Positions 1 to 6,915 of a stretch of DNA of 6,915 bases are shown piece after piece. Each line of letters starts with the position of its first letter. Position 1 is the stretch's first letter. Origin of the DNA: a virus (taxonomy: Duplodnaviria > Heunggongvirae > Uroviricota > Caudoviricetes). The notes under the pieces were generated by a model. The model ran no database searches. It was not told the DNA's origin and saw only the letters and a list, made by a program, of their open reading frames with translations. Location: the IMG/VR virus record IMGVR_UViG_2713896896_000002, positions 1 through 6,915 of that record. One strand, written 5' to 3'. The position numbers and the translations under genes were made by a program.

Positions 1-99
1 ACGCCTCGGGCTGGCTACTTAACCCCTGACCACTGCCTGGTAACTCAAAGTATTGCCCTGCGTTCTGTGGGGCGGGGAGGGTTGGTATGAAATAAAGGA

Positions 100-136
100 T
101 ACCCATAGGTATTCAAAAAGTAAATACCCATGGGTA
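100..136. promoter_or_regulatory. OL-like operator pair: two 12-bp palindromes TACCCATAGGTA (100-111) and TACCCATGGGTA (125-136)
   Basis: Second site is a perfect palindrome and the first differs at one position. Centres are 25 bp apart and sit about 45 bp beyond the 3' end of the repressor gene. The same TACC-N4-GGTA motif recurs in the repressor/cro intergenic region. Confidence 0.6.
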
Positions 137-178
137 AAATTTTGGGGTGTCTTAACTGGTGGCTGGTTGTTTGGTGAG

Positions 179-598
179 TTATGACGCGTTTTGTGCTTTC
201 TTTTTACGGATTTCTTCGTAGATCATATTGTAATACTGTTTTTTCTCTTCAAGAGTTTTTAATAAGTTATCCGTTTCACTTTCTGGCAGTTCGTCTAAGA
301 GATCTAAAAAAATACGTTGTCGTGGCGTTAGAACCCTTGTTTCATAATTGGAGGCTGTGTTCGTTGATGATGAAACGATACCATCCATCCATCCCCGGGG
401 TAACCCAAAGGACTCTTCGATAATCTCCACCATATCATCAGCGATCCGTTTTTTTCCTTTTTTCCCCTCTGGGTACAACATTCTTGATACATAAGAAGGC
501 TCGCGACCGATCTTTCTGGCCACGTTAACCGCTTTACCATCGCATTTCTCATCACGAATTTTGATGAGTTGCTGTCGTCTAAATTCATATTTGTCCAT
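179..598 (-). CDS. Prophage immunity repressor, XRE/Cro-CI family HTH, short form (139 aa) with no S24 peptidase domain
   Basis: ORF 179-640 on the minus strand. The HTH pattern (RRQQLIKIRDEK..GKAVNVARKIGREPSYVSRM...FGLPRGWMDG) fits XRE-family spacing if translation starts at Met15 (ATG = complement of 596-598); the longer ORF would start at 640 inside an operator. No Ser/Lys autocleavage domain: the protein ends about 80 aa after the HTH. Divergent from a cro-like gene, as for RacR/YdaS. No obvious SD for either start. Confidence 0.75.
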   Translation of the reverse strand: MDKYEFRRQQLIKIRDEKCDGKAVNVARKIGREPSYVSRMLYPEGKKGKKRIADDMVEIIEESFGLPRGWMDGIVSSSTNTASNYETRVLTPRQRIFLDLLDELPESETDNLLKTLEEKKQYYNMIYEEIRKKKAQNAS

Positions 599-699
599 AG
601 GTAAATAATAGATGCGATTACCGCAAGGTAAACAACCCATAGGTATTGACTTTTGTTTACCTGTGGGTATTCTTGACCGTAGTTTACTAAGGAGTAGCC
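599..699. promoter_or_regulatory. OR-like divergent control region: operator sites TACCGCAAGGTA (619-630, degenerate), AACCCATAGGTA (634-645), TACCTGTGGGTA (658-669); rightward promoter -35 TTGACT (646-651), -10 TATTCT (668-673)
   Basis: Three copies of the TACC-N4-GGTA palindrome lie between the divergent repressor and cro-like genes. A sigma70-like -35/-10 pair with 16-bp spacer overlaps site 658-669, and an AAGGAG Shine-Dalgarno (689-694) precedes the cro ATG at 700. The leftward repressor promoter was not confidently located. Confidence 0.6.
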
Positions 700-981
700 A
701 TGGAAGAATTAAGAATATTTCTCAATTCTCTTTCGTCAGATGAACAGCGTATGTTTGCATGTGAGTGTGGTACTAGCATCGGTTATCTAAGAAAGGCATT
801 GAGTAAAGGTCAAGTGTTAGGGGCATCGTTATGTGTCCTTATTGAGCGAGCCAGTAATGGTGAAGTTACACGTCAGCAACTAAGGCCTTTTGATTGGATG
901 AATATTTGGCCCGAGCTGGAAGATACCAAAACGTTAACACAACCACTTTCCAGGAGCTTGATTCATGATAATCAAGCATGA
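700..981 (+). CDS. Cro-like / YdaS-family HTH regulator (93 aa)
   Basis: First rightward gene after the operators, with a good SD. Sequence features (FACECGTSIGYLRKA..., ERASNGEV, LRPFDW) resemble the YdaS/Cro-like family as I recall it. Its 3' end overlaps the next gene by 17 nt. Confidence 0.7.
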   Translation: MEELRIFLNSLSSDEQRMFACECGTSIGYLRKALSKGQVLGASLCVLIERASNGEVTRQQLRPFDWMNIWPELEDTKTLTQPLSRSLIHDNQA

Positions 982-1390
982 GCACATCCGCATGGTGATG
1001 AATGCCTGGGCGCATCCGGACGGTGAAAAAGTTCCGGCGGCTGAAATAACCCGGGCTTATTTTGAGCTGGGTATGACGTTCCCGGAATTATATGACGACA
1101 GCCATCCTGAAGCCCTGGCTCGCAATACTCAGAAAATTTTCCGCTGGGTGGAGAAAGACACCCCTGATGCGGTTAAAAAAATTCAGGCGTTGTTACCAGC
1201 GATCGAAAAGGCAATGCCGCCTCTGCTGGTGGCCCGAATGCGCAGTCACAGTTCAGCCTATTTTCGGGAGCTGCTGGAGACGCGGGAGCGGCTGGTGAGG
1301 GATGCAGATGATTTTATTGCGGTGGCAATTGCTGGTTTCAACCAGATTAATCGCGGTGGCCCGGCAGGAAATGCCGTGGTGATGCACTAA
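965..1390 (+). CDS. YdaT-like protein (cII-position regulator of Rac-like prophages), 141 aa
   Basis: N-terminus MIIKHEHI... and overall size match my recollection of E. coli Rac YdaT (about 140 aa, starting MKIKHEHI). SD AGGAG at 950-954. Position immediately after cro is typical of cII analogues. Confidence 0.65.
   Translation: MIIKHEHIRMVMNAWAHPDGEKVPAAEITRAYFELGMTFPELYDDSHPEALARNTQKIFRWVEKDTPDAVKKIQALLPAIEKAMPPLLVARMRSHSSAYFRELLETRERLVRDADDFIAVAIAGFNQINRGGPAGNAVVMH
1225..1232 (+). other. Chi site GCTGGTGG
   Basis: Exact octamer on the + strand; two more copies occur at 6339-6346 and 6396-6403. Confidence 0.7.
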
Positions 1391-1413
1391 AAGCACGGTG
1401 TTCGGGGTTTTTT

Positions 1414-2376
1414 ATGAGCAGCAAGCTTCATGGTCTTGTCTGGGAAGGGTGTGCCTTCACCGGCATGATCTTATCCAGGGTGGCAGTGATGGCTCGTCTT
1501 GCAGACTACAGCAATGATGAAGGTGTGTCATGGCCTGCAGTAGAGACCATTCGTCGTCAGATTGGGGCAAAGAGTGAATCAACGGTTAAAGCGGCGATAG
1601 CGGAACTGGAAAAAAGCGGCTGGCTGACAAAGGAAGAGCGTAAGGTTGGCGGACGTAACGTAAGCAATATCTACCGGCTTAATGTGGAAAAACTCGAAGC
1701 TGCAGCAGCGGCGGCGCGAGAGGCATATAAACCGAAAAGAAAAATTAGCCCGGCAAAAAATGACCCGTTAACGGTTGACCCGTCAAATATTGACCCCTCA
1801 ACGGTTGACCCGTCAAATTTTGATGGATCAACCGTTGATAAAAAACGGTCGGTTAGGGGGGCGATGATTGACCCCGATCCGTCAGTATTAAAATCTGATC
1901 CATCAGATAAAAGATCTTCTTGTCCGGACGCTTCGCAACCGGACCCGCAGACGGCTGAACAGGATTTTTTTACCCGACACCCTGATGCGGTTGTGTTCAG
2001 TGCGAAAAAACGCCAGTGGGGAAGTCAGGAAGATTTGGCGTGCGCACAGTGGATCTGGGGACGAATCGTGAGTCTTTACGAGCAGGCGGCCAGCGATGAT
2101 GGCGAGATCACGCGACCGAAAGAACCAAACTGGACCGCGTGGGCCAATGACGTGCGCACAATGCGGATGCTGGATGGCAGAACTCACAGACAAATTTGCG
2201 AAATGTTTGGGCGGGTACAGCGGGATCCATTCTGGGTAAAAAACATCATGAGCCCGTCAAAGCTCCGCGAAAAATGGGACGAACTGGTCATCCGCCTGGG
2301 GCGTTCACCTGTACAGCGTTGTGTGAATCATATTTCTGAACCGGACACCGAAATTCCTCCGGGGTTCAGGGGGTAA
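1414..2376 (+). CDS. Replication initiation protein (lambda O analogue) with N-terminal winged-helix DNA-binding domain and DnaT-like C-terminus
   Basis: 320-aa ORF. The N-terminal region (VSWPAVETIRRQIGAKSESTVKAAIAELEKSGWL) looks like a winged helix. The C-terminal SEPDTEIPPGFRG closely matches the C-terminal end of E. coli DnaT as I recall it. Internal iterons encode a repetitive DPSNIDPSTVDPSNFDGSTVD linker. The gene is directly followed by a dnaC homologue, mirroring the host dnaT-dnaC operon. No clear SD for the ATG at 1414. Confidence 0.8.
   Translation: MSSKLHGLVWEGCAFTGMILSRVAVMARLADYSNDEGVSWPAVETIRRQIGAKSESTVKAAIAELEKSGWLTKEERKVGGRNVSNIYRLNVEKLEAAAAAAREAYKPKRKISPAKNDPLTVDPSNIDPSTVDPSNFDGSTVDKKRSVRGAMIDPDPSVLKSDPSDKRSSCPDASQPDPQTAEQDFFTRHPDAVVFSAKKRQWGSQEDLACAQWIWGRIVSLYEQAASDDGEITRPKEPNWTAWANDVRTMRMLDGRTHRQICEMFGRVQRDPFWVKNIMSPSKLREKWDELVIRLGRSPVQRCVNHISEPDTEIPPGFRG
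1760..1831. repeat. Iteron array inside the replication gene: five copies of TTGAYNNNTCAA-type 12-mer at 15-bp periodicity
   Basis: Copies at 1760-1771 (degenerate), 1775-1786, 1790-1801, 1805-1816 and 1820-1831. There is an exact 19-bp direct repeat AACGGTTGACCCGTCAAAT at 1770-1788 and 1800-1818. Each unit is an inverted repeat, TTGAC-CC-GTCAA. Confidence 0.75.
1832..1920. other. Putative origin unwinding region: A/T-rich tract with clustered GATC sites adjacent to the iterons
   Basis: GATAAAAAACGG followed by GATCCGTCAGTATTAAAATCTGATCCATCAGATAAAAGATCTTCT. GATC at 1876-1879, 1897-1900 and 1913-1916, with a direct repeat GATCCRTCAG. The layout parallels the lambda origin lying inside gene O. 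Confidence 0.55.
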
Positions 2377-2382
2377 CGAACC

Positions 2383-3129
2383 ATGAAAAATATTGCGACA
2401 GGCGGCGTTCTGGAACGTATCCGCAGACTGACCCCGCCACATGTAACCGCCCCATTCAGAACGGTAGCGGAGTGGCGCGAGTGGCAACTTGCTGAAGGCC
2501 AGAAGCGTAGCGAGGAGATCAACCGCCTGAATCGCCAGTTGCGGGTGGAAAAAATTCTGAATCGCTCAGGCATCCAGCCGTTGCACCGTAAATGCTCGTT
2601 TGCGAATTACCATGTACAGAACGACGGCCAGCGATACGCGTTAAGTCAGGCGAAATCCATCGCTGATGAACTGATGACCGGATGCACAAATTTCGCGTTC
2701 AGCGGAAAACCTGGTACCGGAAAAAACCATCTGGCGGCGGCTATCGGGAATCGCCTGCTGAAAGACGGCCAGACAGTGATAGTGGTTACTGTGGCTGATG
2801 TTATGAGTGCCCTGCACGCCAGCTATGACGACGGGCAGTCAGGCGAAAAATTTTTGCGGGAACTGTGCGAAGTGGATCTGCTGGTTCTTGATGAAATTGG
2901 CATTCAGCGTGAGACGAAAAACGAGCAGGTGGTGCTGCATCAGATTGTTGATCGCCGGACAGCATCGATGCGCAGTATGGGGATGCTGACAAACCTGAAC
3001 TATGAGGCCATGAAAACGTTGCTCGGCGAGAGGATTATGGATCGCATGACCATGAACGGCGGGCGCTGGGTGACTTTTAACTGGGAAAGCTGGCGCCCGA
3101 ATGTCGTCCAGCCAGGAATCACGAAGTGA
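2383..3129 (+). CDS. DnaC-family helicase loader (lambda P-position replication protein), AAA+ ATPase
   Basis: Walker [18 protein letters not shown] and Walker [10 protein letters not shown]. Strong end-to-end resemblance to E. coli DnaC as recalled (N-terminal MKN..., RSGIQPLH, C-terminal [22 protein letters not shown]...[10 protein letters not shown]). SD AGGGGG 9 nt upstream of the ATG. Confidence 0.92.
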
Positions 3130-3151
3130 TTTTTACCGGGAGGAAATTTTA

Positions 3152-3913
3152 ATGGAGACTGTTTTTGACGCACTGAAAGCGATGGGAAAGGCCACATCCA
3201 TAGAACTTGCTGCGCGACTTGATATCAGTCGTGAAGAGGTACTGAATGAGCTGTGGGAACTGAAAAAATCTGGTTTCGTTGATAAAACCGCGTACACCTG
3301 GCGTGTGGCTGGTAGCAATGCTCAGCAGGAACAAGCATCCCGGGCTGAATTTCATGAAGAAACTACCACGGCAACAGTAGCGAAAATCTCAGAGTGCGAT
3401 TTAACGGCGACGATTGAACAACGCGGACCACAAACGGCTGATGAGCTGGCTACGCTGTTCGGTATCACATCACGCAAAGTGGCTTCAACGTTGGCTCAGG
3501 CAATCAGCAAAGGTCGCCTGATTCGCGTAAATCAGAACGGTAAATTTCGTTACTGCATGCCGGACGATAATTTACCAGCAGAGCCGAAAGCCGCATTGGT
3601 AACGGAAACAGATGGTAAAGCCTTTCCTCAGCCAGCAGGTGTTGCGTTACCAGCACAGGAAACTGTAACACAGGAAGAAATTAAAACAGAAACTGTGGCG
3701 GACATTGTGCAGTCGCTGCCATCGTTCACCGAAACGCGGGCGGATGACCTGATTTTACCATCGCTGCATCTGGCAAACCGCGAACTGCGCCGGGCGAAAA
3801 ATCATGTCCAGAAGTGGGAGCGCGTCTGCGCCGCGCTGCGGGAGCTGAATAAACACCGGGATATTGTCCGACAGATTGTCGATTCCTCCAGTCGCGTTGT
3901 GTCGGAAAGGTGA
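3152..3913 (+). CDS. Hypothetical phage protein with two winged-helix-like repeats and a charged, probably coiled-coil C-terminus (253 aa; possibly DUF1627-like)
   Basis: Start placed at ATG 3152 because of SD GGGAGG at 3138-3143; the track ORF from 3101 would overlap dnaC-like. Two similar HTH-like segments ([30 protein letters not shown] and [32 protein letters not shown]). The family name is a tentative recollection. Confidence 0.7.
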
Positions 3914-3920
3914 GGCACTT

Positions 3921-4337
3921 ATGAGAAACGTTTTTACACCTGAATATCGGGAGCAACTGAAGGCGCGTATTGTGGAACTGGTGCGCAGAGATGGGAGGAA
4001 AACACGTAAGCAACTGGAGGATGAAACCGGAGCAACGAGACACCTGATAGAAGTTCTGGCGAAAGAGCTGGTAGTTAGTGGCACGCTATATGGTTCAGGC
4101 CATGGAATATTTCCTTCAGAACAGGCTCGTAAGGACTGGATAAAAGCCTGCAAAAAAATGTCGAGAGCGGCAGTGAAAAAGAAGAGCGACCCTGACCTGA
4201 TTTATTCATTGCCAGATGGTGAAATACGCCGTTACAACAGGAGACAGAACATAATTTGCCGAGAGTGCCGTCAGAGCGAAACTATGCAGCGCGTGCTGGC
4301 TTTCTGGAAGGGAAGTTTGCAGGAGGTGGTACTGTGA
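3921..4337 (+). CDS. Hypothetical protein (138 aa), basic, with N-terminal HTH-like segment
   Basis: Start at ATG 3921 with SD AAGGTGAGG (3907-3915) 5 nt upstream; the track start 3864 lacks an SD and overlaps the upstream gene. Tightly linked to the preceding ORF (7-nt gap), suggesting co-translation in one operon. Confidence 0.65.
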   Translation: MRNVFTPEYREQLKARIVELVRRDGRKTRKQLEDETGATRHLIEVLAKELVVSGTLYGSGHGIFPSEQARKDWIKACKKMSRAAVKKKSDPDLIYSLPDGEIRRYNRRQNIICRECRQSETMQRVLAFWKGSLQEVVL

Positions 4338-4464
4338 GCCAAATTAACAATCAGGACTGCGTGAAGTGAAAGAGAAAACATAATTCAAATCTGAATAATT
4401 AATCTCAGCACTGTAAATAAAATTTAATCCTTAACAGGAGGGATTCCTGCACCCTCAAAACATC

Positions 4465-4498
4465 AGGAGGCCGCCCGAAAGGGCGGTAATGAAAAATG
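4465..4498 (+). promoter_or_regulatory. Structured translation-initiation leader: SD AGGAGG (4465-4470), hairpin CCGCCC-GAAA-GGGCGG (4471-4486), start ATG 4496
   Basis: Perfect 6-bp GC stem with GAAA tetraloop sits exactly between a consensus SD and the start codon. Linear spacing is 25 nt, but about 9 nt if the hairpin is formed. A second weaker hairpin GAGGG-N9-CCCTC lies at 4438-4456. Confidence 0.5.
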
Positions 4499-4903
4499 AC
4501 TGAATTAACAAAAGAGCAATTAATCGAAGAAGCTAAATTAAAAATAGCGATTGCGAAATGCCACCCCAATTCAGGGGTGGCACGAGTAGAGGGTGAGTTA
4601 TTCAAAATTGCTCTGGCATCGCTGGAAGCAGAGCCGATAGCGTGGGAATACGGCGAAAACATAATCCTGTTTAATCCTGACACAGTTGAAGCATACGCAA
4701 AACGTGCAGAGATAACACCTAAACCTCTATTCACCGCTACACCTGTGTCACTGACACCAGAAGGATTGATTAAAGCAGTGCGTTTCTATGAACAGGTTAA
4801 GCGTGAAAATCCGCCAGTCGAAACCGGAGCATGGAAAGACGCGGTTGACTGGGTGCTCAAAGAGGCCTGTCGTGCAGCCATGCTTAAGGGAGATAAATCA
4901 TGA
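4496..4903 (+). CDS. Hypothetical protein (135 aa)
   Basis: Clean ORF. Its stop overlaps the next start in an ATGA arrangement (4900-4903). Preceded by a 158-bp AT-rich intergenic region and the structured leader. No family recognised. Confidence 0.65.
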   Translation: MTELTKEQLIEEAKLKIAIAKCHPNSGVARVEGELFKIALASLEAEPIAWEYGENIILFNPDTVEAYAKRAEITPKPLFTATPVSLTPEGLIKAVRFYEQVKRENPPVETGAWKDAVDWVLKEACRAAMLKGDKS

Positions 4904-5247
4904 TTAATCGAACCAAACTGGAGCACATCCTTGAGTATGCCTGGCAGCAGAGGCATTTGGGTCAGCACTGTAAAATTCCACCAGGAGATATGGTTGAAAT
5001 CGTGGAGATTGCCATGCGTAAGACTGGCAACTCTCCGGTAACTTCGGGCGGTTGGATAAGCTGTAGTGAGCGAATGCCAGGTGATGGTCAGCACGTAATT
5101 ATTTTATGTGATGGCGCATTCGTTCTTCATGCGCAATATCGAGACGGTGAGTTTTTCGATATTGTCCGCAATGGTAATGAATTTTTTGAAACACAGAGCC
5201 GCAATGTAACCGACTGGATGCCGCTACCAGAACCACGAAGGAGGTGA
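4900..5247 (+). CDS. DUF551-like phage protein (115 aa)
   Basis: C-terminal pattern GGWISCSERMPGDGQHVIILC...DGEFFDIV...VTDWMPLPEP matches my recollection of the DUF551 signature (W..P....V.....g....DWMPLPEP). Start overlaps the upstream stop, suggesting translational coupling. Confidence 0.65.
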   Translation: MINRTKLEHILEYAWQQRHLGQHCKIPPGDMVEIVEIAMRKTGNSPVTSGGWISCSERMPGDGQHVIILCDGAFVLHAQYRDGEFFDIVRNGNEFFETQSRNVTDWMPLPEPRRR

Positions 5248-5251
5248 ATCA

Positions 5252-5323
5252 ATGAGCTGGCCTGAGGCATTCACAACAGTAGGTATTGTACTGGCGGTGT
5301 ATTCGATTTGCCGCTGGGGGTAA
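5252..5323 (+). CDS. Small ORF, 23 aa, predicted single-pass hydrophobic peptide (MSWPEAFTTVGIVLAVYSICRWG)
   Basis: Not in the ORF track. Near-perfect SD AAGGAGGTGA (5238-5247) with 7-nt spacing to ATG 5252; stop TAA 5321-5323. It sits directly after the DUF551 gene in the same orientation. Confidence 0.5.
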   Translation: MSWPEAFTTVGIVLAVYSICRWG

Positions 5324-5329
5324 GGTATT

Positions 5330-5373
5330 AAAAAACGCCCCGCACACATAAGTTGGGCGCCTGAGATGCGGGG
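5330..5373 (-). terminator. Putative intrinsic terminator oriented for leftward (minus-strand) transcription
   Basis: 7-bp GC-rich stem CCCCGCA (5338-5344) / TGCGGGG (5367-5373). On the minus strand the stem is followed by CG then TTTTTT (complement of A-run 5330-5335). The loop is long (22 nt) and may fold further. There is no T-run after it on the plus strand. Confidence 0.4.
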
Positions 5374-5484
5374 ATAGGGAGTTGGTTAAATAGTTATACA
5401 ACAATACTTGATTTTGCATTGAAGCAAGGAGGAGATTGCCACATATTGAATCATGCACGTGTACGTCAAATGTGGGAGGTCATC

Positions 5485-5574
5485 GTGCTGGTTCTGAAAT
5501 GTGCGCTGGCTATTGCGGCTGTAATGGCAATTTATTGTCTTGTTATTGTTCTTATGAATCACCTCTCTGATTGA
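5485..5574 (+). CDS. Small ORF, 29 aa, very hydrophobic peptide (MLVLKCALAIAAVMAIYCLVIVLMNHLSD); candidate small membrane toxin-like peptide
   Basis: Not in the ORF track. SD GGGAGG (5474-5479) is 5 nt upstream of GTG 5485; an in-frame ATG at 5470 without SD would give 34 aa. Stop TGA 5572-5574. Composition resembles type I toxin peptides (single TM helix, short polar tail). Confidence 0.45.
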   Translation: MLVLKCALAIAAVMAIYCLVIVLMNHLSD

Positions 5575-5581
5575 TTTTATA

Positions 5582-5610
5582 TTGGCGAGGTGACGTGAGT
5601 TAAGTAGAAT
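5582..5610 (+). promoter_or_regulatory. Putative hok mRNA promoter: -35 TTGGCG (5582-5587), 17-bp spacer, -10 TAGAAT (5605-5610)
   Basis: Sigma70-like elements positioned so that transcription would start near 5617, at the GGGTGCTTGAGGC element typical of hok-family mRNA 5' ends. Confidence 0.5.
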
Positions 5611-5659
5611 TGCTGCGGGTGCTTGAGGCTATCTGTCTCAGGCATGAACACCAAAAGGC

Positions 5660-5750
5660 AGATAGAGAAAAGCCCCAGTTAACATTACGCGTCTTGCAGG
5701 ACGCTTAACATTAATCTGAGGCTCAATCCATGCTGAACACATGTAGGTTA
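5660..5750 (-). ncRNA. Expected position of a Sok-like antisense RNA overlapping the hok leader / mok-like start (boundaries not resolved)
   Basis: Inferred from the hok-family architecture. Candidate minus-strand promoter: -35 TTGCCT (complement of 5768-5773), -10 TAACCT (complement of 5745-5750). I could not identify a clean terminator, so the extent is approximate. Confidence 0.3.
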
Positions 5751-5786
5751 GCCTCTTACGTGCCGAAAGGCAAGGAGAAGCAGGCT

Positions 5787-5942
5787 ATGAAGCAGCAAAA
5801 GGCGATGTTAGTCGCCCTGATCGTCATCTGTTTAACCGTCATTGTTACGGCACTGGTAACGAGGAAAGACCTCTGCGAGGTACGAATCCGAACCGGTCAG
5901 ACGGAGGTCGCTGTCTTCACAGCTTACGAACCTGAGGAGTAA
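5787..5942 (+). CDS. hokD: Hok/Gef-family type I toxin (51 aa), closest in my recollection to HokD (RelF)
   Basis: MKQQKAMLVALIVICLTVIVTALVTRKDLCEVRIRTGQTEVAVFTAYEPEE carries the Hok signature (TM helix then RKDLCEVRIRTGQTEVAVFTAYE). SD AAGGAGAAG at 5772-5780. An in-frame upstream ATG at 5730 (track ORF 5730-5942) may play a mok-like coupling role. Confidence 0.85.
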   Translation: MKQQKAMLVALIVICLTVIVTALVTRKDLCEVRIRTGQTEVAVFTAYEPEE

Positions 5943-5950
5943 GAGACCAG

Positions 5951-6005
5951 GCGAGGGAGAAATCCCTCGCCACCTCTGATGAGTCAGGCATCCTCAACGC
6001 ACCCG
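5951..6005 (+). other. hok mRNA 3' structures: hairpin GCGAGGGA-GAAA-TCCCTCGC (5951-5970) and fbi-like element CCTCAACGCACCC (5993-6005) complementary to the mRNA 5' end (5617-5628)
   Basis: The 3' element is the reverse complement of GGGTGCTTGAGG at the predicted 5' end, with one bulged base. This is the hallmark 5'-3' closure of full-length hok mRNAs. The hairpin is a perfect 8-bp stem with GAAA loop. Confidence 0.6.
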
Positions 6006-6296
6006 CACTTACAACCGATGGCGCACGATACCAAATTATACAATTCTGATGATTCTGCCGTCTTTGCCAGCAGGCGCGGACGGTGTTTTCACGCATTCAA
6101 ATCTGACTGGTACCAGCATCCCCCATGCACTGAAGAACAGGCCGAATGGATAATTCAGTGTTACCGCAGGCGCGGATGCGAGGTTAAAAAAGCCCTTAGC
6201 CTCGACTACCGTCACTGGATAATCTCCGTCAGGCTCCCTTACTCCGAACGGCCGCCGCGTCCGTCCCGCACATTCCAGCAACGGATCTGGAGGTAA
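5979..6296 (+). CDS. Hypothetical protein, possibly Rem-like (Qin-prophage position between hokD and ydfU); 105 aa, or 92 aa from ATG 6018
   Basis: ORF with plausible protein-like composition (FKSDWYQHPPCTEEQAEWIIQCYRRRGCEVKK). Gene order matches hokD-rem-ydfU as I recall for E. coli K-12 Qin. No SD for either candidate start; the 5979 start would lie inside the hok mRNA 3' end. Confidence 0.5.
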   Translation: MSQASSTHPHLQPMAHDTKLYNSDDSAVFASRRGRCFHAFKSDWYQHPPCTEEQAEWIIQCYRRRGCEVKKALSLDYRHWIISVRLPYSERPPRPSRTFQQRIWR

Positions 6297-6297
6297 C

Positions 6298-6915
6298 GTG
6301 CGGGTATTACTTCGACCTGTTCTGGTACCGGAACTCGGGCTGGTGGTCCTTAAGCCTGGTCGTGAATCCATGCAGGTATTTCATAATCCTCGAGTGCTGG
6401 TGGAGCCGGAACCGAAAAGCATGCGCAGTCTGCCGTCAGGAGCTGTTCCTGCCGTTCGCCAGCCGCTCGTGGAAGATAAATCATTACTGCCATTTTTCAG
6501 CGATGAGCGGGCGATTCGTGCTGCTGGCGGCGCTGGCGCATTGTCTGACTGGCTCCTGCGTCATGTTAAATCCTGCCAGTGGCCTCATGGTGACTATCAC
6601 CACAGCGAAACCGTCATACATCGTTACGGTACCGGCGCGATGGTGTTGTGCTGGCACTGTGACAACCAGCTGCGCGACCAGACATCAGAGTCACTCGGGC
6701 AACTTGCTCAACAAAACTTGTCAGCATGGATGATTGACGTCATCCGTCACGCAATGAATGGCACACAGGAGCGGGAATTATCGCTGGCTGAATTATCCTG
6801 GTGGGCGGTCCGCAATCAGGTGGCGGACGCGCTACCGGAAGTGGTATTACGTCGTTCGCTGGGGTTGCGTGCGGAAAAAATCCGCTCAATGTACCGTGAA
6901 AGCGACATCGTACCG
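6298..6915 (+). CDS. DUF968/YdfU-like prophage protein, 5' portion (continues beyond window end)
   Basis: Open frame from GTG 6298 to the window edge (206 codons, no stop). SD GGAGG at 6289-6293. The GTG lies 1 nt after the upstream stop TAA (6294-6296). Cys/His-rich segment CQWPHGDYHHSETVIHRYGTGAMVLCWHCDNQ. The track ORF 6362-6733 is in another frame and looks spurious. Alternative start ATG 6370. Confidence 0.65.
   Translation, partial: MRVLLRPVLVPELGLVVLKPGRESMQVFHNPRVLVEPEPKSMRSLPSGAVPAVRQPLVEDKSLLPFFSDERAIRAAGGAGALSDWLLRHVKSCQWPHGDYHHSETVIHRYGTGAMVLCWHCDNQLRDQTSESLGQLAQQNLSAWMIDVIRHAMNGTQERELSLAELSWWAVRNQVADALPEVVLRRSLGLRAEKIRSMYRESDIVP
6339..6403 (+). other. Two Chi sites (GCTGGTGG) 57 bp apart at 6339-6346 and 6396-6403
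   Basis: Exact octamers in the same orientation as the site at 1225. Confidence 0.7.

Follow-up and report, generated by a model that had tools for sequence, protein, structure and literature searches.

We analysed a 6,915-nucleotide (nt) stretch of viral DNA (IMG/VR record IMGVR_UViG_2713896896_000002, positions 1 to 6,915), called the window below, in which three open reading frames (ORFs) of 135, 115, and 23 amino acids (aa) follow a structured leader between positions 4338 and 5323. We read this region as a short two-gene example of the recombination-shuffled accessory strings of Ea22/Eaa/DUF551 type in Escherichia lambdoid prophages, a reading to which we give a probability of about 0.6. 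A preliminary description, made from the letters and an ORF list, had proposed a three-gene accessory unit; the ORF list agrees with it on the places, sizes, and + strand of the three ORFs, and the ATGA stop/start overlap and the perfect Shine-Dalgarno (SD) sequence that it named can be read directly from the DNA. The features of the region are as follows.

4388-4495, + strand: leader of about 110 nt, consisting of a palindrome, hairpin 1, AGGAGG, and hairpin 2, followed by ATG 4496
4391-4408, + strand: imperfect palindrome CTGAATAATTAATCTCAG at the 5' edge of the leader
4438-4456, + strand: leader hairpin 1
4465-4470, + strand: leader AGGAGG, 25 nt from the AUG
4470-4487, + strand: leader hairpin 2 with a GAAA tetraloop, 8-9 nt (4487/4488-4495) from ATG 4496
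4496-4903, + strand: 135-aa ORF with two modules, A and B
4900-5247, + strand: 115-aa ORF with module C and DUF551, its start overlapping the stop of the 135-aa ORF (ATGA, 4900-4903)
5239-5244, + strand: SD sequence AGGAGG of the small ORF, inside the last DUF551 codons and 7 nt before ATG 5252
5252-5323, + strand: small ORF for the 23-aa peptide MSWPEAFTTVGIVLAVYSICRWG, an allele of a family of predicted 27-aa single-pass membrane peptides
5330-5373, - strand: candidate reverse-facing terminator with a stem of 7-8 base pairs, a loop of about 20 nt, and then U6

The 115-aa protein passes the Pfam gathering score for DUF551 (Pfam ID PF04448; E = 1.2e-17, 64.9 bits against a cut-off of 22) over residues 51-112, which bears out the DUF551-like label of the preliminary description, and it matches phrog_924 and phrog_60 in PHROGs. 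The 135-aa protein has no Pfam match, and its PHROG matches are phrog_660 (E = 3.8e-48) and phrog_5117; the homologue search gives 1,723 homologues. None of the three ORFs has a Pfam, NCBIfam, or PHROG match to a characterised Nin family (lambda ren, ninA-ninI), and profile searches of PDB sequences with both larger proteins yield nothing below E = 0.1. The preliminary description could assign no function to the proteins, and the Pfam, NCBIfam, PHROG, PADLOC, and PDB profile searches gave none either.

The 135-aa protein is composed of module A (about aa 1-88, MTELTKEQL…IALASLEAEP…) and module B (about aa 89-135, GLIKAVRFYEQVKRENPPVETGAWKDAVDWVLKEAC…), with the module boundaries visible in alignment A3, and module C occupies aa 1-47 of the 115-aa protein (MINRTKLEHILEYA…GNSPVT). 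Homologues combine these parts in different ways. In P0074, module A is joined directly to the DUF551 subtype of the window, P0003 and L067 consist of A and B plus a further C-terminal '…KLPDKAMDYLKRNGLISVEDVLR' module, P0070 carries the Ead/Ea22 N-terminus (PF13935) on the body of the 135-aa protein, and P0160 joins the Ea22 coiled coil to the DUF551 subtype of the window. The family phrog_60 spans both window proteins with their order kept, and the module joints are short conserved linkers such as …LEAEP… and …GNSPVTPDGWISCSERMP…. The homologues show that both larger proteins are chains of interchangeable modules that recombine within genes. Since these chains are shared with Ea22/DUF551 fusions, the window proteins belong to the mosaic Ea22/Eaa/DUF551 gene pool; the mosaic nature of the Ea22/DUF551 pool and the portability of the DUF551 domain have been described (PMC10834534). 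Virulent Vequintavirinae phages have the same modules, and so do Stx-converting (Shiga toxin-converting) and related phages, in which they lie near the prophage ends, adjoining the integrase gene in the case of PhiR12_1.

We searched for the region at a coverage of at least 80% in 50,697 phage records and 5,426 complete Escherichia coli genomes, and the whole region is absent from both sets at this coverage. The matches are piecewise, with a best coverage of 57%. The three ORFs do not co-occur across related prophages, and the proposal that they move as a unit, which the preliminary description had made dependent on such co-occurrence, fails outside a narrow Escherichia albertii lineage, given a coverage of at most 57% and recombination within genes.

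The peptide family of the small ORF was traced by tblastn, DNA pattern scans, and exact peptide look-up. With the 23-aa peptide, tblastn gives 27-codon stretches in about 90 phage records. Each stretch begins 4 nt short of the end of a gene annotated as Ea22, EaA, DUF551, or hypothetical; in none of these records is the small ORF itself annotated. The family follows the pattern M[ST]WP[ED]A..T.G…A…VYS[IV]CRWG. A pattern scan of viral contigs gave at least 120 loci; the copy counts below are among the matches listed. The small-ORF start overlaps the upstream stop as ATGA in 103 of 111 listed copies, and these overlapping starts lie behind at least four unrelated upstream C-termini. For all four C-terminal types the SD sequence lies within the last codons of the upstream gene, and one type uses a GTG start. 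In the window, the DUF551 gene ends in …PLPEPRRR* instead of the usual …PLPEPPQEVNQ* (5228-5247) through an indel of 1 nt, so that its stop lies 4 nt before the small-ORF ATG with the SD sequence kept, whereas most copies overlap.

DNA matches to the small ORF are found in about 1,900 of the 5,426 E. coli genomes, at up to nine places per genome, where RefSeq annotates the upstream gene only or no feature. A few submitters call the peptide a 'hypothetical' or 'bacteriophage' protein (P0241, for example). The genome contig scan shows a taxonomic range that is essentially Escherichia and Shigella, the matches in metagenome-assembled genomes being due to chance or contaminants. The small ORF also occurs in virulent Vequintavirinae phages, in VT2-Sakai, and in 933W. 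In the last of these, the reference Stx2 phage, an unannotated 27-aa peptide gene lies between L0139 and sokW/hokW (L150, 1501-1584), and in the virulent rV5-like Vequintavirinae phage TH18 such a gene follows an 'EaA protein' (L005, 2001-2084); temperate and virulent coliphages thus have these accessory strings in common.

The window peptide (MSWPEAF…VYSICRWG) retains both end motifs, the SD sequence, and the position, while its core is four residues shorter owing to an in-frame deletion of 12 nt in the hydrophobic core. In E. albertii, the 27-aa and 23-aa alleles are both found behind an identical DUF551 gene in sister prophages. The deletion shortens the uncharged stretch from 19 residues in the 27-aa form to 15 in the 23-aa form, and the window allele may therefore be weakened. 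The peptide family is absent from Pfam, NCBIfam, and PHROGs, its match to KdpF is below the threshold (E = 0.024, 14.7 bits against a cut-off of 26.85), and the 23-aa ORF has no match to Hok/Gef (Pfam ID PF01848). Peptide-DUF551 fusions, suggested by shared clusters in the exact look-up, were not found in P0242, P0243, P0257, or P0259. The peptide motif has no match in the literature searched, nor is it found in the supplements of two ribosome-profiling studies of enterohaemorrhagic E. coli (PMC5597208, PMC4765031).

Nucleotide identity among the copies is very high, and in 58 of about 119 listed copies the hok/sok promoter follows the small ORF at a distance of about 25 nt. Both observations would fit a stretch of 23 or 27 codons that is no gene and is conserved for a role of the DNA or RNA, as a recombination joint or as an element upstream of the hok promoter, and so would the short hydrophobic stretch of the window allele, the silence of the two profiling supplements, and the fact that RefSeq and most submitters do not call the ORF. 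Such a role agrees poorly with selection that is specific to the ORF frame, where the ratio of nonsynonymous to synonymous polymorphism (pN/pS) is 0.39 against 0.91 and 2.09 in the other two frames among the listed copies, and 18 of 19 third positions are variable. Moreover, 116 of 119 listed copies are intact, indels come in multiples of 3 with the 23-, 25-, and 27-aa variants all in frame, substitutions exchange hydrophobic for hydrophobic residues, and SD sequence and start are kept behind the four unrelated C-termini, including the one with the GTG start. About half of the copies precede something other than hok (terminators or other genes), most of these having strong bidirectional terminators or convergent toxin-antitoxin genes after the small ORF. 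We consider this non-gene reading very unlikely; judged by its sequence signature, the small ORF is a real protein-coding gene family. The preliminary description had suspected a small gene of the kind often missed by annotation, and frame-specific selection, intact copies, and the missing annotation in 933W speak for this view.

The AT-rich upstream region with a structured leader, also named in the preliminary description, is borne out by a GC content of 0.42-0.43 against 0.49-0.55 in the flanks and by hairpin 2 (4470-4487), which folds at -16.9 kcal/mol (z = -4.7) with none of 200 shuffles equal. The description of the leader as the unit's own has to be given up, the leader being a portable junction element before many different genes. 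It is conserved before the 135-aa ORF irrespective of the upstream gene, it is found after at least eight unrelated genes, and it stands before at least six different first genes, whose starts lie 5-9 nt past the hairpin. Of the 102 viral loci among the matches listed that have sufficient sequence, 82 carry the leader on the strand of the small ORF and 473-2,728 nt upstream of it, and between the two are one to eight tightly packed variable genes with junction gaps of -8 to +10 nt. The loop of hairpin 2 varies between GAAA and GGCA, both of which are GNRA loops. From the AGGAGG 25 nt from the AUG, the 16-nt hairpin between them, and the GNRA loops, we infer a hairpin-bridged start site: the GNRA hairpin would shorten the 25-nt gap to about 9 nt, and initiation at the 135-aa ORF would depend on the folded leader RNA. 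An Rfam search with the leader gave no match. A boxB/nut-like or put-like role of the hairpins was dropped, with no boxA-like sequence and no Rfam support. The palindrome CTGAATAATTAATCTCAG, which is perfect in the consensus of other leader copies (CTGAAT-AATTAA-ATTCAG), may serve as a binding site for a protein or form a weak RNA stem.

According to the preliminary description, the region is an inserted moron of the variable accessory slot, bounded on the right by a terminator facing the opposite way and possibly active in superinfection exclusion or anti-phage defence. Its view of the slot agrees with our results. Between the DUF977 gene and hok, other prophages carry ParDE, a SIR2 family protein, QueH, or Doc. 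By locus, the SIR2 family protein is found in E. coli O55:H7 CB9615 (L129) and ParE/ParD in O111 (L002), while the Doc toxin and QueH occur in the DUF977-to-hok/DUF968 slot among the prophage matches H61-H75. The interval from DUF977 to hok/DUF968 is a hot spot for cargo, at times with defence-type genes. This cargo, the GC content below that of the flanks, the stable linkage of the three ORFs in E. albertii, and the reverse-facing hairpin with U6 on the right would be in line with an autonomous moron that guards the lysogen, the 23-aa peptide being the membrane partner of two soluble proteins.

The signals that such a moron would carry point the other way. A consensus scan finds no sigma-70-like promoter in 4200-5570, no + strand terminator follows 5323, and the ORFs are co-oriented with their neighbours in a tightly packed operon, with the leader acting as a junction element inside longer gene strings. 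Of the right-hand boundary, the stem and the U6 exist on the minus strand (5373..5330); the fold (-14 kcal/mol, z = -1.06) is no better than shuffles, and the consensus terminator scan did not pick it up. This hairpin belongs to an insert of about 270 nt between the small ORF and hok/sok, a downstream class in the minority among the copies. The region does not behave as a block present or absent between conserved neighbours, being stable only within E. albertii, and its modules assort independently in E. coli and phages, where the peptide sits behind many unrelated proteins. PADLOC-DB 2.0 gives no match for the 135-aa protein or for either peptide form (23 aa or 27 aa), and for the 115-aa protein a single, nonsignificant match to HamB (E = 0.066). 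The same genes and peptide in virulent Vequintavirinae and near the ends of Stx-converting prophages are a poor fit to a lysogen-specific function. We therefore regard a lysogen-protective moron as improbable and find no support for a superinfection-exclusion or anti-phage role. The earlier interpretation is thus partly supported: the locus is variable accessory cargo with a small gene missed by annotation, and is neither a three-gene unit nor a moron.

The window is identical to contig BBVE01000051.1 of assembly GCA_001514555.1, is about 88% identical to E. coli prophages, and the closest homologues of both larger proteins carry the name Escherichia albertii. It is the early-right region of a Rac/Qin-like lambdoid prophage of E. 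albertii, with the following gene order.

Left part: cI-like repressor (- strand), Cro/YdaS-like gene, YdaT-like gene, replisome organiser (HTH_36), and DnaC/IstB-like ATPase
Middle: DUF1627 gene, DUF977 gene, and the three ORFs under study
Right part: unannotated stretch of about 270 nt, hok/sok, a 105-aa ORF, and the start of a DUF968 gene
5787-5942: hok (Pfam ID PF01848), inside the mok frame 5730-5942

The DUF977 gene upstream of the three ORFs is a 'Ren-like exclusion protein' by its PHROG match, and the hok/sok locus downstream is recognised by the Pfam Hok match and by Rfam sok at 118.9 bits. According to the ORF finder, the DUF1627 ORF (3101-3913) and the DUF977 ORF (3864-4337, TTG start) overlap by 50 nt; on sister contigs the gene callers begin these genes later (253 and 138 aa), and the overlap is gone.

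The stretch of about 270 nt holds a second hydrophobic small ORF on the + strand (5485-5574), which is unannotated, has a GTG start and the SD sequence GGGAGG at 5474-5479, encodes 29 aa (MLVLKCALAIAAVMAIYCLVIVLMNHLSD), and stops a few nt short of the -35 hexamer in a hok promoter-like site. It has no Pfam, NCBIfam, or PADLOC match. The E. coli loci L127-L130 keep this ORF with synonymous or conservative changes, and the sequence upstream of its SD diverges. Of 5,426 E. coli genomes, 1,839 have a match to its region, and none of the 25 matches listed carries an annotated feature. A promoter-like site on the minus strand (5603..5574, TTAACT-18-TAAAAT) lies upstream of the hairpin and U6 at 5373..5330, and the two, on consensus matches only, could define an RNA of about 240 nt antisense to the 29-aa ORF. 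On the same consensus matches, this layout resembles a type I toxin-antitoxin pair beside hok/sok.

By analogy with better-studied relatives, the larger proteins may be adaptors that are expressed early, bind other proteins, modulate the development of the phage or the physiology of its host, and are co-expressed with a small inner-membrane peptide; our confidence in this functional part is low. The string would have no promoter of its own and would be transcribed by read-through of the early-right operon, and its downstream genes would be translated by coupling. The adaptors would bind host or phage partners and would tune the lysis-lysogeny balance or host physiology, as the Ea22 deletion studies suggest, and the peptide would insert into the inner membrane, the N-terminus facing outwards and the C-terminus inwards. 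Deletion of ea22 was described to shorten the latency, increase the burst size, and lower host survival and lambda lysogenisation (PMC7093339). The Stx Ea22 variant V2 carries DUF551 (PMC10834534). The DUF551 protein YfdS has been linked to H2O2 tolerance and, when over-supplied together with YfdQR, contributes to the inhibition of replication initiation (PMC4776307).

The main functional rival to the adaptor proposal, and one less unlikely than a lysogen-protective moron, is that the proteins are counter-defence or host-takeover factors whose shuffling reflects an arms race with the immune systems of the host and in which DUF551 is a portable target-binding domain. The extreme modular diversity, in which the leader and the small ORF are the sole fixed parts, would be expected from such an arms race, as would packed strings co-oriented with phage genes and modules shared by temperate and virulent phages. 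DUF551, described as a portable domain (PMC10834534), is also fused to a dATP/dGTP pyrophosphohydrolase domain. Set against this, no DUF551, Eaa, or Ea22 protein has a demonstrated anti-defence activity in the literature searched, there is no structural or sequence link to known anti-defence families, and the phenotypes that have been published relate to stress tolerance and to the choice between lysis and lysogeny (PMC7093339, PMC4776307). We consider a counter-defence role unlikely.

Several results weigh against the shuffled-string reading or its functional part. In E. albertii prophages the three genes stay together at 10 of 10 places, including those with different replication or late modules. 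The Ead_Ea22 model (PF13935) matches neither window protein at E <= 0.1, so the Ea22 analogy rests on the shared modules of P0070 and P0160. The AlphaFold2 models of both proteins have low confidence, with predicted local distance difference test (pLDDT) scores of 60.4 and 48.8, and thus give no fold-level support. In the leader hairpins, 95% of the cells are paired with only one double change, a result that shuffles match; at about 95% identity among the copies, covariation cannot confirm the hairpins. One seeming compensatory change in hairpin 1 does not pair. A weak promoter could escape the consensus scan, the peptide is missing from the two profiling supplements named above, and the function of every part is proposed by analogy.

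For the locus itself, the shuffled-string reading is of little consequence: it adds a further combination to the Ea22/Eaa/DUF551 'dark matter' genes known from the variable slots of lambdoid prophages. The peptide is a concrete small-protein candidate, being widespread, present in reference Stx phages, and marked by a coding signature and a fixed position. With its conserved ends and combinatorial interior, the string also gives a practical way to locate and catalogue such accessory strings and to ask which selection drives the shuffling. More tentatively, and as a possibility that we find doubtful, the leader, variable genes, and small ORF might form a dedicated portable 'cassette frame' with fixed ends between which Ea22/Eaa/DUF551 modules are reshuffled, the peptide being a common partner of all these proteins or of hok/sok. 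If this is true, the peptide would represent a new and very widespread phage small-protein family, in about one-third of E. coli genomes, that was missed even in 933W. The portable leader and the bracketing peptide appear to be undescribed in the literature searched.

Compared with known systems, the closest relatives are the Ea22 and Ead/Ea22-like proteins of lambda and Stx phages (IPR025153, PF13935), with which the window proteins share a common mosaic pool and the …LEAEP… joint. Both are products of early accessory genes without an enzymatic signature. The window proteins differ in being without the N-terminal segment and the long coiled coil, in being split over two coupled genes, and in their place in the nin-equivalent early-right region, whereas Ea22 is encoded in the exo-xis region. 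YfdS of the cryptic prophage CPS-53 of E. coli K-12 likewise carries DUF551 in a small prophage protein encoded in a packed string (yfdQRST), with another N-terminal module and other neighbours than the 115-aa protein. Deletion of YfdS causes H2O2 sensitivity (PMC4776307); the resemblance of the window to it lies in DUF551 and layout.

The string L0141-L0140-L0139 of 933W is similar to that of the window in combining an Ea22-like and DUF551 protein, a coiled-coil protein, a 27-aa ORF, and hok/sok. The unannotated 27-aa ORF of 933W (MTWPEAFANVGTVMAVVLVVYSICRWR) overlaps the upstream stop, and hok/sok follows about 25 nt on. The protein modules are different, the 933W string lies elsewhere in the phage genome, and the window has the insert of about 270 nt before hok/sok, with the second hydrophobic small ORF.

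In the translation initiation regions of the T4 genes 38 and 25, a hairpin bridges the SD sequence and the AUG. The leader of the window seems to follow the same principle, with its SD sequence 25 nt off and a hairpin predicted to cut the effective spacing to about 9 nt, and a spacing of 5-9 nt after the hairpin is held before six different genes; it has no sequence relation to the T4 genes. The peptide resembles KdpF, AcrZ, and CydX in its size class of about 25-30 aa with one hydrophobic helix, and its conserved polar ends suggest a specific partner. It differs from them in being phage encoded, and its match to KdpF is sub-threshold.

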